UHGV virus genome: UHGV-1570996
DNA: 19,300 nt
From: a virus
Reading direction: 5' to 3' (one strand)
In this document: piece after piece, positions 192 through 5,524 of the stretch
How positions within the stretch are numbered: the stretch's first letter is position 1
How the letters are laid out: each line of letters starts with the position of its first letter
Translations under genes and position numbers: made by a program
The notes under the pieces: model-generated
Databases searched by the model: none
What the model was told of the DNA's origin: nothing
Seen by the model: only the letters and a program-made list of their open reading frames with translations

Positions 192-449
192 ATGATGTAC
201 AGCAAATACGATGAGGCGCAGTTCCACTTGAGGCTTACGCACGAGTTGCACGCTAAGATTAAGCAGCGTGCAAAAATGAATAACAGGTCTATCAATTCCG
301 AAATTGTGGCTACGATGGAAGAATCACTCTCCAAACCATCACCTGTAAGCGGGTATCGTGATGAAGAAGAGAGGCTGGCCTCATTAATCTCGGAACGAGT
401 AAAAGAAGTTGCGGCTGATATCCTTAGAAAAGAAAAAACCCGCGATTAA
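192..449 (+). CDS. mnt: Mnt-like ribbon-helix-helix repressor (homolog of P22 immI Mnt)
   Basis: Translation from ATG 192 (GTGAGG RBS 6 nt upstream) gives about 85 aa; N-terminal strand-helix region FHLRL...NNRSINSEIV matches the Arc/Mnt RHH pattern (recalled P22 Mnt GRSMNSEL); C-terminal SKPSPVSGYRDEEERLA closely matches recalled P22 Mnt SKPSPVTGYRNDAERLA. The ORF-track start at 111 is judged an upstream extension. Confidence 0.7.
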   Translation: MMYSKYDEAQFHLRLTHELHAKIKQRAKMNNRSINSEIVATMEESLSKPSPVSGYRDEEERLASLISERVKEVAADILRKEKTRD

Positions 450-457
450 GCGGGTTT
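436..457. terminator. Bidirectional rho-independent terminator between convergent mnt and the ant operon
   Basis: AAACCCGC-gattaa-GCGGGTTT hairpin; on the minus strand it is followed by TTTTTCTTTTCT, on the plus strand by a weaker T-rich tract; the mnt stop codon lies in the loop. Confidence 0.6.
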
Positions 458-463
458 AGTTGG

Positions 464-685
464 TTAGTTATCAAAAAGTCCGTACGTTTCTTCTTCTTCA
501 GGTGTAAGGGGAAGAATCTCTACTCTATCTATAGATACCTTTTCAATGTACCCATGAGGTCTACTTAAAATTAAAGCTCTCTCATGCCACAGAACTCCAA
601 GAATGTGATACCTTCCAGCATCGCCTTTTACCCTGGCTCTTCCTTTGATTCTTGGCGGCATAATGCCATATTTTTTCTTTGCCAT
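464..685 (-). CDS. Hypothetical 73-aa protein, translationally coupled to the upstream antirepressor gene
   Basis: ORF with ATG at 685-683 overlapping the TAA stop of the upstream gene by one base (TAATG); basic N-terminus, acidic C-terminus; no family recognised. Confidence 0.5.
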   Translation of the reverse strand: MAKKKYGIMPPRIKGRARVKGDAGRYHILGVLWHERALILSRPHGYIEKVSIDRVEILPLTPEEEETYGLFDN

Positions 686-1413
686 TATGCAACATTACTC
701 CCATGAATCAGGTGTTGTAGTGCTTTAACACCTTCCGCATTGTAGCGGAATGCTTCCACCTGTTTGCTGGAATGCGCAGATTTATCCAGGAAGAACTTAC
801 CGTACTGCTCAGTTTTGAGGTTGTTTGCGTTAGCAATGCGACCAATCTTGTTGGCCGTTACTCCAAGCTGCTCTGCAACCTCCCCTGCTGAGTAGTAATG
901 CTCTTCTATTGCTGGAAGAGGTATTGCATTAAAACCAACGATCGGGTTGATTATGCTTGCTGCCGCAGTCTGCTTTGCTTCCGGCGCAAGATTTGGCATC
1001 AAATCGAACAGATTGGTAACAGCTTCAACCGTCATTTTCAATGTTCGCGCCTGGCGATACTCAACAAGTCCACTAGACGATTTACCGCTTTTAATGTGCG
1101 CTTCTTGCATACTTTCAAGTTGGTCTACAAGTGAGCGGCGAACAGCTTTAGATTCACGAGCAGCCACTCGAAGGGCTTGCTTAATTGACATAACAACTTT
1201 TTCAGAAGTTGTCTTGTTTGATTTTTGAACTACGAAAATTTCGTAGTGCTCACCTTCAAGTTCATCCTTAATGCGTGCAATAAAGTCGTTATTGCGGACT
1301 TCTTTTTCCCCGCACTGTCTACGAGCATGATTGACCATCTCTAACAGGTACTGGCTATCAATGGTTTTATCCGTGACAACGGATCCGATGTTTGCTACAT
1401 TCTTAAAAGTCAT
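685..1413 (-). CDS. Antirepressor-family protein, Rha-like N-terminal region with KilA-C-like C-terminal domain (ant2)
   Basis: Start chosen at ATG 1413 (AAGGAA RBS 7-8 nt upstream) rather than the track start 1464; C-terminal YYSAGEVAEQLGVTANKIGRIANANNLKTEQYGKFF resembles the KilA-C/ANT C-terminal domain; N-terminal TIDSQYLLEMVNHARRQCGEKEVRNNDFIARI resembles phage Rha regulatory proteins. Confidence 0.6.
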   Translation of the reverse strand: MTFKNVANIGSVVTDKTIDSQYLLEMVNHARRQCGEKEVRNNDFIARIKDELEGEHYEIFVVQKSNKTTSEKVVMSIKQALRVAARESKAVRRSLVDQLESMQEAHIKSGKSSSGLVEYRQARTLKMTVEAVTNLFDLMPNLAPEAKQTAAASIINPIVGFNAIPLPAIEEHYYSAGEVAEQLGVTANKIGRIANANNLKTEQYGKFFLDKSAHSSKQVEAFRYNAEGVKALQHLIHGSNVA

Positions 1414-1501: not shown

Positions 1502-2128
1502 TCAATGAATCCATTCCTCGCCGCGCAGTTTTGCCAGCATTGGCTGAGCGTTCTTTACGACAAAATTGTTGGTATCAAGATTCTTCATTTCACGAAGAAG
1601 TGATTTCTTGGTTTCTTCTGACATGTAGCGAGTCTCATATGCAATATCGTAAATCCTTCCTGAAAGCTCAGAACCAATTTGCTTCATTCCTGGGTAGATG
1701 TGTTTGCACATTTGTTGACTCTTCTCCATCCACAATTGTAAGTAGCAGAGATTAACCAGTTCTTCGTCAGTAAACTGTTTTGCAATCGGTGAGCATTCTG
1801 CCTGCCGATCCAAAATATCCAGCACCCAGCGGCGGAACTCTTTGGCTACCGGAGTGCGAGCAAACATCGCGATTAGGTGGGCACCGCGTAGTGAGAAAAC
1901 TCGCACTTTTTTGCGATAATTTCCTGAGGTACTCACTTCGAGTACCTGAGTCATTCCGGCGCTAAATTCATCGCTATACTTGTTATAAATCATTGTTACT
2001 GCACGACTATTTGCGTATTTAAGTGCAGATGCAATATTAGATGATGTAAACCAAACACCATGCATATCACGGGTGGGCACCAACTCAACTCCGTGGAAGT
2101 TGTAATCTGATTTTGCTACAATATTCAT
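1502..2128 (-). CDS. Antirepressor-family protein with AntA/BRO-N-like N-terminal domain (ant1)
   Basis: Start chosen at ATG 2128 (AAGGAAA RBS 7 nt upstream), giving about 208 aa beginning MNIVAKSDYNFHGVELVPTRDMHGVWFTSSNIASALKY, typical of the N-terminal domain of phage antirepressors; the track start 2233 would overlap the arc ORF. Confidence 0.6.
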   Translation of the reverse strand: MNIVAKSDYNFHGVELVPTRDMHGVWFTSSNIASALKYANSRAVTMIYNKYSDEFSAGMTQVLEVSTSGNYRKKVRVFSLRGAHLIAMFARTPVAKEFRRWVLDILDRQAECSPIAKQFTDEELVNLCYLQLWMEKSQQMCKHIYPGMKQIGSELSGRIYDIAYETRYMSEETKKSLLREMKNLDTNNFVVKNAQPMLAKLRGEEWIH

Positions 2129-2205
2129 GTTAGTTTCCTTGCATACGGTTACTGACATAGAGGCCCGGTTTGTGTTCGCGCACTGCCGGGCTTCACTATT
2201 TTTAT
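2129..2205 (+). ncRNA. Candidate sar-like antisense RNA complementary to the ant1 RBS and arc-ant1 spacer
   Basis: Plus-strand extended -10 TGcTACAAT (2114-2122) just inside the ant1 start predicts a TSS near 2129; plus-oriented hairpin GCCCGG...CCGGGC (2163-2190) followed by TTCACTATTTTTATT; arrangement parallels P22 sar as recalled. Confidence 0.35.
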
Positions 2206-2375
2206 TGGATGACAACATCGCCCTTTGCCTCAAGTTTCATCAATAACTCCATTCGATAAGCTATCTCTGCCTGAATTGACCTATGGCATCTTTTTGCTGA
2301 TTCGCGGATATGTGAATCAACCTTTTCTGTAAAACGAACCTGACGCGGCTTGATGGAAGATATCTTTTCAGTCAT
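2202..2375 (-). CDS. arc: Arc-like ribbon-helix-helix repressor (57 aa; below the ORF-track size cutoff)
   Basis: Manual translation from ATG 2375 (AGGAG RBS, 6-nt spacing) to TAA 2204-2202: MTEKISSIKPRQVRFTEKVDSHIRESAKRCHRSIQAEIAYRMELLMKLEAKGDVVIQ; strand QVRF then two helices with an RS-x-x-EI motif as in P22 Arc (GRSVNSEI); lies immediately upstream of ant1 as arc does in P22. Confidence 0.65.
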   Translation of the reverse strand: MTEKISSIKPRQVRFTEKVDSHIRESAKRCHRSIQAEIAYRMELLMKLEAKGDVVIQ

Positions 2376-2424
2376 TATGCACTCCTGTTTTTGAAAAACT
2401 CATAATCTCACTTTTTGCAGTTTG

Positions 2425-2453
2425 ATTATTCACTCACACTCAGTATGAGTCAA
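2425..2453 (-). promoter_or_regulatory. Candidate Pant-like promoter with operator repeats in the spacer
   Basis: Minus-strand -35 TTGACT (plus 2453-2448), 17-bp spacer, -10 AATAAT (plus 2430-2425), about 45 nt upstream of arc; spacer holds tandem CACTCA CACTCA plus an inverted TGAGTCA copy (plus 2431-2453), including inverted repeat ACTCA-gta-TGAGT. Confidence 0.4.
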
Positions 2454-2474
2454 TGAATTTTTTATGGTGAACTA

Positions 2475-3116
2475 ATGAATTTTGACGATCAATTCCCATC
2501 AAGAGTATCTCTGGCAAGACAGTCCAGGGGTATGACGCAGGCGCAGTTGTCAAAATTAGCTGGTGTTGTTCAACGTCAAATAGCTGCATACGAGGGTGGT
2601 GAGGCTAAACCACGGCTTCGTGTATTGCAGGCATTAGCCAACGCATTAGGTACTACGGCTGAGTGGTTAGCTCTAGGTGAAGGTCAGGGTCCAGGAACAA
2701 AAAACGTCATGCCTGACGTTCTGGTAAAGCAAATACCAATTCTCAAACTAGATGAAGTTATGCATTACCTAAACACAGGTGAACATTCATCGTCTAGATT
2801 TCATCCGGCAATATACAATGTTGGTGACTCTGCATTTGCATTGACTATTGAAGGTGAAGCTATGACTACAAGTTCAGGTATTAGCTTTCCCAGAGGATCG
2901 GTTGTCACGTTCAGCCCTCTAGTAAAAGCTAAAAGCAAAGATTATGTAATAGCATCATTGGATAAAGAGCAAATATTGAGCTTCAAACAGGTTTACATTG
3001 GTGAAATAGAGACAAACCTAGTATCCCTAAACCCAATGTATCCTAATATTCTTGTTAGAAATGAAGATGTTAGTATTTTGGCAACCGCAGTTTACCTTGA
3101 AATCCCGTTGCTTTGA
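2475..3116 (+). CDS. cI/C2-like repressor: N-terminal HTH (XRE type) and C-terminal LexA/S24-like domain with catalytic Ser apparently replaced by Ala
   Basis: 213-aa ORF with GGTGA RBS; HTH region MTQAQLSKLAGVVQRQIAAYEGGEAKPRLRVLQALANALG; C-terminal EGEAMTTSSGISFPRGSVV aligns with lambda cI EGNSMTAPTGSKPSFPDG (Ser to Ala at the nucleophile), FKQV aligns with cI FKKL, and LNPMYPNI with LNPQYPMI. Confidence 0.8.
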   Translation: MNFDDQFPSRVSLARQSRGMTQAQLSKLAGVVQRQIAAYEGGEAKPRLRVLQALANALGTTAEWLALGEGQGPGTKNVMPDVLVKQIPILKLDEVMHYLNTGEHSSSRFHPAIYNVGDSAFALTIEGEAMTTSSGISFPRGSVVTFSPLVKAKSKDYVIASLDKEQILSFKQVYIGEIETNLVSLNPMYPNILVRNEDVSILATAVYLEIPLL

Positions 3117-3176
3117 TATCCTTTAGGAAGCGACACATTATCATCTGGTATCCTGCTCAAAACTAAGGAGGTTGGT

Positions 3177-3404
3177 GTGAAGCGATGGTTCCTCATAATT
3201 ACTGTTTTCGCGATCATTTACGCTATTTTCCCTGCATTAAAAGCACCAATGCAAATAATTTCACTAGCAATAATTGCAATTGGTGCTTTCATTACAGTAT
3301 CCGTACTTGTGTTTAAGGTTTTAAAGTTTTTAGTTTGGCTATCAAAAGATGATGGATGCAAAGTTCATCAAGAAAAAGAAGGCAAAATAACCAAAGTTGA
3401 CTAA
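3177..3404 (+). CDS. Small 2-TM membrane protein (75 aa) downstream of the repressor gene
   Basis: GTG start at 3177 preceded by AAGGAGG with 6-nt spacing; two hydrophobic helices (FLIITVFAIIYAIF and IISLAIIAIGAFITVSVLVF) and a charged C-terminus; its stop overlaps the stop of convergent gp16. Confidence 0.5.
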   Translation: MKRWFLIITVFAIIYAIFPALKAPMQIISLAIIAIGAFITVSVLVFKVLKFLVWLSKDDGCKVHQEKEGKITKVD

Positions 3405-5524
3405 CTGTCACTAGCGAGCCATGTAATAATCCCAGTGCGAGCAATGGTTTTTGCTTCATCTGTTGATAGGGTTTTCTCCCATCTCTTAAATACCCCAGAT
3501 TGCATCAGTTTCCTTTCTATTGCGCGTCTCACTTCTGCTCTGTCTACTGGTGCGTTTTGCAGGCGAAATAGCATTGATTTAAACTCAGGAGAAGACAGTA
3601 GAGCATCAGCAGCCTTTATCCTGCTTGTTTTCCCTGACATCAATGCGGACGTTATCACCCCTGTTGCACCTACACCAGGAAGACCAGATAAGCTTGTAAC
3701 ACCTTCCGCCGCAGCAGCTTTTGAGGCTATTCCATAAATTTTTGCTAGACTACCCTTTTCCTTCAGAAAGTTATTAACTTGCTGATCCACAAGGCTGCTA
3801 GCATACTGCTTACCAGTATTGAGTCTATTCATAGCCTTGGCTGCTTGATAAATCGTATCAAGGCGCTTTGATGCATCTGTGCCAATAGCATCACGGAGAG
3901 CCTTCATATTGGCCCCATTGCGTGACATTCCGTTATACCATTTTACAAATCCATCAACCCCTAATTGCTGACCTGGTGATTTAGCATAGCTGGTAAATGC
4001 TTTATTCATTGAGGTGAGCGCAACTTCCTGCCGCATATCCTTTGGAATTGACTTCATTAATTGCCTAAAGTCACCACCGTTTCCTTTTGCCATATTAACA
4101 ACGGCACTTTCAACTTTTGGAATTGCTGATTGCTGAAGTTTTCTACCCAAAACGGTTACGGCATCATCTTCAATGGATTTTCGTGTTTTTACCAACTCCT
4201 TACCAAGCGTCCATAACTCCCCTGCGCCATATTTTTCTGCGACAGCCTGTTGGTCATCTGTTATAGCTGCATATAACTTTTTAAGAACACCTGTTTCTTC
4301 ATCCTTGAATGGGCCAGAGCCTTTGCCAATAGCTTGCCCAACCTGCTTTCTAGCGAGATCTAAACGCCCATACGTTGGCAAGGTGTTTGGATCAAGTCGG
4401 TTCAATGTCCGCTTCATTATTGGAGATAATTCATCAATTCCACCTATGTCATCAGCAAAATCCTCTAAAAAATTCAATGTATTGGTTGCCTCAATACGGT
4501 CTCTTACTGGAACCTTTTCGGCAATTTTGTTGTAGATGTTATCTGACTGATTTTGTAATGATGAAATGGTTTTATCAAAATTATCTGCAAGCCTGTCAGA
4601 AACCAGTTGCTTATCAAGGTTTCCCCCAAATGAAGTTATCATTTCATCAGCTTTTCTTCCTAATTCAGTAATAAAGCGCTTATGCGCCTCACTAATCTCT
4701 GTTCCAGGAAGACTTGCCACTGCATTATCAAGAGCCCTGACAGCAGGATTATTAGAGATCATTCCTGGAGTGGCATAATTTTCCAGTTCTAGCTCACGGA
4801 TGGCATTTATCGCGTTAAAATCAGGATTAACTTCATCGGCGAAACCTTGAATAGCTCGTTGCCCGCCAATAAATTTATTATCCATTGCGCCAGCAGCTTT
4901 CTTTAACGTTGCTTTAAATGATTTACTCCCCATCCCTACGGATGAGCGATAAATATCCCCGGCACTATTTTTAATTTTTCCTGCAATCTTCCCAAGCGCT
5001 GGACCAACAATCTCGGCTACAGGGCCAGCCACAGCGCCAATAGCAGCGCCGGAAGCAACATCGCTATTTGTTCCATTGGCTACAATAGCCCCTTCTCCAG
5101 CACCAAGCCCTGCGGCGGCAGCCAGCCTTGCCGCCCCTTTCGGAACCTGAGAAATAATCCCACCACCACTAACAAATGGCGCGGCTTGTCCAACAAACTC
5201 ACCAACATCTTGTGCGGTTGATGGTTTTGCCGCTAACTTCTGCTGTAGAGACTGAATTGCGGCTTGCTCTTCTGGTGTCATATCCTGAAACAGGCCAACA
5301 CCTTTACCAACATCCATCAATCCACTGAGAACGCCATACATAAAACGGTCGAAGCCGTTAGCATTATTAACAACATTTTCCTGTCTGGAATTTTCCTCTG
5401 GTGAAACCAAAGGAGATTGCTGCTGTTCTGGTTGGGCATCAAGCACAAAGCCATCAGGAAGCTGTGAGTTATCAGGCTGATTATCGAGAACAAAGCCTTC
5501 GGGTAAACCTACATCGGTTGCCAT
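3401..5524 (-). CDS. gp16-like ejection (internal virion) protein, N-terminally extended with a short tandem repeat
   Basis: 707-aa ORF at the position of P22 gene 16 (last gene of the morphogenesis operon after gp20); Ala/Gly-rich low-complexity segments; N-terminus carries [12 protein letters not shown] / [12 protein letters not shown] repeat. Confidence 0.65.

Follow-up and report, generated by a model that had tools for sequence, protein, structure and literature searches.

In the virus genome UHGV-1570996, a gene encoding a lambda cI-like repressor occupies the place that belongs in phage P22 to the unrelated repressor gene mnt. The 19,300 nucleotides of this sequence are referred to below as the window. 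The protein combines a helix-turn-helix (HTH) DNA-binding domain with a C-terminal domain of the S24 autopeptidase type, in which the catalytic serine is replaced by alanine and the Ala-Gly cleavage site is missing. We consider it likely that the protein is an SOS-blind, Mnt-like maintenance repressor of the adjacent antirepressor operon, built on a lambda cI scaffold with a dead autoprotease.

The extent of the gene agrees exactly with that given in a prediction made beforehand from the sequence alone (hereafter the original prediction), and its start is backed by the N-terminal motif MNFDDxFPxRV, kept in all homologues. The N-terminal HTH_3 domain (Table 1) also matches the N-terminal domain of the 434 repressor, both in the comparison with PDB sequences and in profile comparison, and its recognition helix (VVQRQIAAYE) is nearly invariant across the family. 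The C-terminal domain was recognized as Peptidase_S24 by Pfam (E 1.3e-12; 47.9 bits against a gathering cut-off of 23.3). A phmmer search of the PDB aligned the same residues, 108 to 206, with the C-terminal domain of lambda cI (E ~1e-7), and a profile of 23 family members recovered the same columns against lambda cI (E 3e-23). In the AlphaFold2 model (mean pLDDT 86.4, mostly above 90 in the S24-like region), the top Foldseek match is the lambda repressor, followed by LexA and UmuD'. Its C-terminal domain superposes on that of lambda cI (PDB 1f39) with a TM of 0.84 and a root-mean-square deviation of 1.8 Å over 98 columns, at 32% identity. By its predicted fold, the protein belongs to the S24/lambda cI family, in line with the original prediction, which had likened its C-terminal half to the autopeptidase region of lambda cI and LexA. 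It has no sequence relation to Mnt, so that it falls outside the ribbon-helix-helix family of Mnt and Arc.

Two defining features of an active S24 autopeptidase are missing from this domain. In the phmmer alignment, TIEGEAMTT pairs with lambda cI EVEGNSMTA, which contains the nucleophile Ser149, and LSFKQV pairs with FTFKKL, which contains the general base Lys192 (the first lysine of FKKL was identified as Lys192 via the K192A construct 2hnf). Ala129 occupies the Ser149 column in the phmmer, profile, MAFFT and fold alignments alike, bearing out the proposal of the original prediction that the catalytic serine has become alanine in a GEAM motif; the general base is present as Lys171. The segment QIPILKLDEVMHY aligns with lambda YPVFSHVQAGMF, both in the alignment and in the profile, and contains no Ala-Gly: its residues KLDEVMHY face lambda SHVQAGMF, and neither an Ala-Gly nor a Cys-Gly scissile bond is found there. 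Cleavage of LexA and lambda cI is abolished when the catalytic serine or the P1' glycine is mutated (cf. PDB 1jhh, S119A, and 1jhf, G85D). Because the serine nucleophile is replaced by alanine and the Ala-Gly bond is missing, self-cleavage of the repressor appears very unlikely. The original prediction had reached a loss of self-cleavage from the serine only; the absence of Ala-Gly, which it had missed, makes cleavage less likely still. Judged by its sequence, the protein should not be filed as self-cleaving. The serines of the TTSSG run, which the original prediction had named as possible substitutes for the nucleophile, were also considered and rejected, every alignment placing them in the loop after the catalytic position (APTG in lambda); across the family they are not conserved.

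A protein identical to the repressor is encoded by Escherichia phage JEP4 and by more than 20 independent IMG/VR contigs, and the stretch from 2150 to 3420, which holds the gene, is covered to at least 80% in 28 of 5426 complete E. coli genomes. The closest relative for which the DNA was fetched (L002, 81% identical) has serine at the Ala129 codon, encoded by TCT, one transversion away from GCT. The C-terminal domains of the window and L002 are separated by 41 non-synonymous and 62 synonymous differences, dS (synonymous divergence) being saturated, and the substitution pattern points to purifying selection acting on both domains of the repressor. A sequencing error or a pseudogene as the source of the alanine was rejected in view of the identical copies from many sources and of this selection. 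Because of the purifying selection and the confidently predicted fold, the S24 domain is presumably retained for oligomerisation.

The window derives from a P22-like phage (Lederbergvirus) that is about 95% identical to JEP4 over the shared parts and carries its virion and DNA-transfer genes on the minus strand. The repressor gene is encoded on the strand opposite to this late operon, between the gene 16 homologue (3401..5524, minus strand) and a leftward antirepressor operon. The locus, between gene 16 and the tailspike gene, corresponds to the immI or 'ant moron' region described for P22-like phages (PMC2629481, PMC8022706), which is variable among them (PMC2629481). The annotated P22 record lists at this location gene 16, sieA, orf59a, mnt (on the opposite strand), the promoters Pmnt and Pant with the operators Oarc and Omnt, arc, the antisense RNA gene sar, ant and gene 9. 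In its place and orientation, the repressor gene of the window corresponds to P22 mnt.

The leftward operon starts with a gene for a 57-aa protein, in whose family 17 of 37 members match Pfam Arc; comparison of the family profile with P22 Arc by hhalign gave a probability of 81.6% (E 1e-5) over the beta-strand and helix A. It continues with an antirepressor gene, whose start was taken as the ATG at 2128, preceded by a Shine-Dalgarno sequence, then with a second antirepressor-type gene, for which the phrog_1726 match begins at residue 17 of the longest open reading frame (ORF), and with a gene of unknown function. NCBIfam contained no model above cut-off for any protein of the module. The spacer between the Arc-like gene and the first antirepressor gene aligns with the annotated promoter, RNA and terminator of P22 sar. 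The location between genes 16 and 9, the divergence from an arc-ant operon and the presence of Arc, sar and Ant homologues all identify the locus as an immI module. On these sequence comparisons, the Arc-like gene, the sar-like RNA and the first antirepressor are homologous to P22 arc, sar and ant, and the mnt slot alone appears to be filled by a non-homologous protein in an otherwise immI-homologous cassette.

Table 1. Features of the repressor locus in the window (coordinates of minus-strand promoter and terminator elements are given in reading direction).
Feature	Position	Strand	Description
Repressor gene	2475..3116	+	ATG-initiated ORF, 213 aa
HTH_3 DNA-binding domain	2514..2669	+	Pfam, residues 14-65, E 9e-13, above gathering cut-off
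Cleavage-site-equivalent segment QIPILKLDEVMHY	2730..2768	+	Residues 86-98; LexA/cI cleavage-site region, without Ala-Gly
S24-like C-terminal domain	2796..3092	+	Pfam Peptidase_S24, residues 108-206; predicted confident beta-fold
Ala129 codon GCT	2859-2861	+	Position of catalytic Ser (lambda Ser149, LexA Ser119)
Lys171 codon AAA	2985-2987	+	Position of general base (lambda Lys192); retained
Divergent control region, 99 bp	2376..2474		Holds leftward Pant-like promoter
Leftward Pant-like promoter	-35 TTGACT 2453..2448; -10 AATAAT 2430..2425	-	Spacer 17; promoter scan, 10/12 matches
Arc-like ribbon-helix-helix protein, 57 aa	2202..2375	-	First gene of leftward operon; phrog_10182
sar-like antisense RNA unit	2114..2204	+	Between Arc-like gene and antirepressor; fold -35 kcal/mol
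Antirepressor gene	1502..2128	-	Bro-N + P22_AR_C (Pfam); PHROG 'anti-repressor Ant', E 6e-66
Second antirepressor-type gene	685..1413	-	phrog_1726 'anti-repressor', E 3e-100; KilA protein in JEP4 annotation
73-aa gene, unknown function	464..685	-	Last gene of leftward operon; phrog_4977
Terminator-like hairpin after 73-aa gene	457..436	-	Terminator scan
Mnt homologue, 85 aa	192..449	+	47% identical to P22 Mnt; tailspike end of moron, convergent with ant operon
75-aa ORF	3177-3404	+	Strong AAGGAGG Shine-Dalgarno; just downstream of repressor, sieA position; phrog_7294 (unknown function)

A word-indexed search detected 22 homologues of the repressor, which together with GTDB genomes and IMG/VR loci gave a family of 55 distinct protein sequences. 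In 54 of the 55 distinct loci, a gene for an Arc-like protein of 56-57 aa begins some 100 bp upstream, on the opposite strand, and is followed by an antirepressor-type gene. The domains detected in the 45 antirepressor-type proteins scanned were Bro-N (31), P22_AR_C (14), P22_AR_N (8), ANT (4), KilA-N (3) and pRha (2). The same cassette is present in P22-like phages (L007), beside an integrase at the end of a prophage (L004-L006) and in an HK97-like tail region (L094). At L002 (5761-6681), the repressor, Arc-like, Bro-N and pRha genes form a moron inside the tail operon of a lambda-like siphovirus, flanked by its tape-measure and minor-tail genes. This distribution suggests that the cassette is a mobile regulatory unit, in which repressor and antirepressor operon travel together. 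Given the divergent pairing with the arc-like/antirepressor operon in 54 of the 55 loci, the repressor most likely represses the antirepressor genes and is not their target.

When the family is aligned with lambda cI and LexA, Ala-Gly is found at the cleavage column in none of the 55 sequences, the common pairs being A-R, F-A, V-M and A-S. The catalytic serine is replaced by alanine or glycine in 17 of them and the lysine by arginine, methionine or valine, also in 17. Under parsimony, a neighbour-joining tree calls for five or more changes of state at the serine position and four or more at the lysine position. In an exhaustive profile search of 1.84 billion representatives, the best ~70 full-length matches follow the same pattern, and Ala-Gly occurs among them only in P0016 and P0045; classical repressors of the type PLISWVQAG...GDSMT...TFKQL appear only lower, at 120-145 bits. 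In P0016 (L093 4988-5809) and P0045, Ala-Gly, serine and lysine are present all together. P0016 is encoded within an arc-like/antirepressor cassette, and versions of the module of this type may still have a RecA-cleavable repressor and an SOS-inducible antirepressor. The residues around the former active site (G127, M130 and S137-F138-P139) are invariant or nearly so, even in proteins without serine and lysine. The simplest reading of these sequences is that a repressor of the cI type took on a task without need for SOS sensitivity, its cleavage site having been lost and its catalytic residues being shed, with the fold kept for oligomerisation.

Most of the longer family members (255-290 aa; P0012-P0021, L053-L077 and other loci) carry an extra C-terminal tail of about 50 residues with a heptad-like sequence, RLSALENRLDEIMHLIR, which is missing from the clade of the window's repressor. 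This tail may provide a further helix for oligomerisation, which would recall the C-terminal tetramerisation coil of Mnt. Some metagenome gene calls (P0002, P0003 and P0007) begin 12-15 codons too early.

A repressor gene of the immC region would lie between the early operons, divergent from cro, with PRM/PR-OR; the gene studied here is found in a late-operon moron next to gene 16. Along with its identical copy of this gene, JEP4 has a canonical C2 gene at immC, beside cro and c1, whose product carries the motifs SAG, GDSM and FKKL and shares only 26% identity with the mnt-slot repressor. Similarly, the L093 prophage, the source of the relative P0016, has a gene with Phage_CI_repr and S24 domains next to a cro-like one, at a distance of about 5 kb from the module. 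The mnt-slot protein is thus probably not the master repressor of the phage. The original prediction had taken it for the cI-type immunity repressor, so that any induction would have to take another route, plausibly through the adjacent antirepressors. This part is not supported, the locus being immI and not immC, and both JEP4 and L093 having separate repressors. The inferred relationship had been reversed: induction has its own cleavable repressor, and the mnt-slot protein most plausibly silences the antirepressors. In the GenBank entry of JEP4 (L001 8555-9124), the identical gene is labelled 'repressor protein C2', and its start is placed 24 codons too late, cutting off helix 1 of the HTH domain.

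The layout of the leftward promoter in the 99-bp control region parallels that of the annotated P22 Pant/Oarc/Omnt region, and the promoter geometry, together with the spacing of about 100 bp, is kept across 50 distinct intergenic regions. The core of this promoter is flanked by the inverted hexamers ACTCAT (2398-2403) and ATGAGT (2445-2450), and a 13-bp palindrome, ACTCA-GTA-TGAGT (2438-2450), overlaps its -35 element and spacer. These repeats are candidate operator sites for the repressor. The sar-like unit starts with an extended -10 element, TGCTACAAT (2114-2122), and a predicted transcript start near 2128. Its first hairpin (2127-2158) is complementary to the Shine-Dalgarno sequence and ATG of ant, and a GC-rich terminator hairpin (2160-2194) followed by a T-run comes next. 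When sequences were folded one by one, the two-hairpin unit was found in nearly all related loci, with differing stem sequences. RNAalifold gave no consensus structure on a MAFFT alignment of the region, in which the hairpins are out of register. Rfam assigned the RNA to no curated family, the only match being to symR (2126-2197) and below threshold (21.8 bits against a gathering cut-off of 61).

We propose that the repressor made by the prophage would bind, via its 434/cI-type HTH domain, sites in the 99-bp region shared with the divergent promoter. Binding would shut the leftward operon, which encodes the Arc-like repressor, the two antirepressors and the 73-aa protein, and the sar-like antisense RNA would damp it further. 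The S24-like domain would be kept only for dimerisation or cooperative binding. With alanine at the nucleophile position and no Ala-Gly, the protein should undergo no self-cleavage on RecA*, and the same would be expected in vitro. Because the repressor could not self-cleave on RecA*, the antirepressors would be expressed independently of the SOS response, as is the case with Mnt, and prophage induction would run via a separate canonical C2/cI at immC. In P22 lysogens, ant is repressed by Mnt, and P22 ant mutants are still SOS-inducible (PMC7380047).

Several observations weigh against this proposal. A majority of the relatives (33 of 55) retain both serine and lysine, which would be odd if the whole family were non-catalytic, and these relatives might cleave at a non-canonical site. 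The repeats of the control region differ between lineages. The sole covariation seen links an arginine at the first position of the recognition helix to TGTGTCAA and holds in 11 of 11 loci; its site is base six of the -35 hexamer, so that lineage or promoter strength may lie behind it, not binding specificity. The immC region of the window phage itself lies outside the window, and the canonical C2 has been found only in JEP4, whose genome is a mosaic in comparison with the window. The homologue of Mnt encoded at 192..449 could in principle be the ant repressor. Finally, a literature search found no binding, repression or cleavage experiment on any family member.

Other explanations of the same data can be considered. 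One, which we regard as unlikely, takes two related forms. In the first, the S24-like domain of the family is not only a dimerisation scaffold left over from the protease but a repurposed pseudo-protease receiver, whose conserved former active-site cleft would bind a partner (for example the antirepressor of an incoming phage, or RecA* without cleavage). In the second, family members would range from SOS-wired ones (P0016 and P0045) to SOS-blind ones such as the repressor of the window. If the first form is true, the Ant protein of one phage could unlock the ant operon of a resident prophage, leading to a cross-induction cascade; if the second is true, phages would repeatedly switch the response of their antirepressors to DNA damage.

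The repressor could also still be inducible, and the module SOS-wired, if RecA* or a different protease inactivated it in a non-canonical way: it might be cut elsewhere in its sequence, be cut in trans by an intact S24 protein, or undergo non-proteolytic sequestration. Such a scheme would fit the conservation of Lys171 and of the cleft residues, as well as the relatives with both serine and lysine, and P0016 and P0045, with their complete set of Ala-Gly, serine and lysine, make SOS-coupled versions of the module plausible. However, the protein of the window has neither the nucleophile nor the scissile Ala-Gly, and the conserved residues of the cleft also serve to define the fold in all S24 proteins; we consider this explanation improbable.

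We give little credence to the idea that the protein is the primary immunity repressor, non-cleavable and inactivated by the neighbouring antirepressors, as in Gifsy, 186 and SPC32H. The serine-to-alanine change and the adjacent antirepressor genes agree with it, and there are well-documented cases of antirepressors that inactivate a repressor of the non-cleavable kind (PMC3121763, PMC7380047). However, the gene lies in a late-operon moron and not at immC, JEP4 combines it with a cleavable-type C2 gene flanked by cro and c1, and L093 has a separate cI gene by its cro-like gene. The module is also found within tail operons and beside integrases, without adjacent lytic early genes. Reading the control region upstream of the ant operon by eye, with no pattern search run, revealed no LexA box; a CTGT at about 2386 has no ACAG at the right spacing in this reading.

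For the Mnt homologue at the tailspike end of the moron, the sole candidate operator is a perfect 13-bp palindrome, TACCGAAACGGTA, at 119-131, about 60 bp upstream of its start. This palindrome has no near match in the Pant region (2376-2474), and the homologue was rejected as the Pant repressor, its candidate operator being present only beside its own gene. Upstream of the JEP4 mnt gene, no inverted repeats were detected at the settings used. The homologue may be a relic, an autoregulator, or a regulator of a (relic) tailspike-proximal promoter. That it controls ant, the mnt-slot gene being a decaying remnant of a redundant second repressor, seems very improbable: a true Mnt homologue is indeed present, and ant morons are in rapid flux with frequent degraded genes (PMC2629481), but the repressor ORF is intact in every copy, including that of the isolated phage JEP4, both domains appear to be under purifying selection, synteny is nearly universal, the recognition helix is almost invariant and the Pant region lacks a Mnt-type palindrome.

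Two further observations concern the flank of the moron. The gene 16 homologue encodes 707 aa in the window versus 621 aa annotated in JEP4, and the nucleotide identity between the two phages breaks within the gene 16 region, which points to a mosaic junction beside the moron. The 75-aa ORF just downstream of the repressor gene (Table 1) encodes two hydrophobic, probably membrane-spanning stretches, as judged by eye; it lacks an annotation in JEP4, and the other versions of the module do not conserve it. One possibility is a prophage-expressed membrane protein, for example one involved in exclusion.

The reading that we prefer, an SOS-blind maintenance repressor of the antirepressor operon, can be compared with several known systems. 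The repressor gene shares with P22 mnt its place between gene 16 and the tailspike gene, its divergence from the arc-ant operon and its orientation against the late operon. Its surroundings share with P22 immI an Arc-like gene, a sar-like RNA, an antirepressor with Bro-N and P22_AR_C domains and the layout of a Pant-like promoter, and its predicted role, SOS-independent maintenance repression of ant, would be that of Mnt. However, Mnt is an 83-aa ribbon-helix-helix tetramer, unrelated to the 213-aa repressor with its HTH domain and S24 fold, and the true Mnt homologue of the window sits elsewhere, apart from the ant promoter. With lambda cI, P22 C2 and 434 cI, the repressor has in common the two-domain architecture, the fold and the general-base lysine, lambda cI being the best match in both sequence and structure. 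It differs from them by alanine in place of serine, by the lack of Ala-Gly and by the location of its gene, which is outside immC, away from cro and the early promoters, and co-exists with C2 in JEP4.

Gifsy GfoR/GtgR, 186 CI/Tum and SPC32H Rep/Ant likewise associate a RecA-indestructible repressor with antirepressors (PMC3121763, PMC7380047). In these systems, however, the repressors are master repressors targeted by LexA-controlled antirepressors, whereas the repressor described here appears to control the antirepressor genes, the master repressor being a separate protein of the cleavable kind; reading by eye, with no pattern search, also showed no LexA box in the control region. LexA S119A and the Ind- mutants of lambda cI carry the same kind of change, from the serine nucleophile to alanine on the same fold. 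Mutants of this type keep DNA binding and dimerisation (PDB 1jhh, 1jhc). They are engineered, whereas the change in the repressor arose naturally, is fixed in its clade and goes together with a lost cleavage site.

For secondary immunity, the immI region of P22 is the textbook case. Comparative work has pointed out that in many ant morons the antirepressors must be under some control other than Mnt (PMC2629481). A literature search with incomplete coverage of subscription journals turned up no paper on an S24 or cI-like repressor in the mnt slot. The present locus would represent one such non-Mnt solution, with a lambda cI-type repressor in the mnt slot of an arc-sar-ant cassette and an autoprotease apparently disabled by family-wide loss of the cleavage site and repeated loss of the serine or the lysine. 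The protein would thus be an S24 pseudo-enzyme of natural origin. In annotation pipelines and on a first reading, such genes will be mistaken for the master repressor of a prophage, and its inducibility will be mispredicted. Being small and portable across podovirus and siphovirus backgrounds, the cassette may allow the wiring of antirepressors to the SOS response, and the cross-talk between prophages, to be compared between intact and dead catalytic sites.

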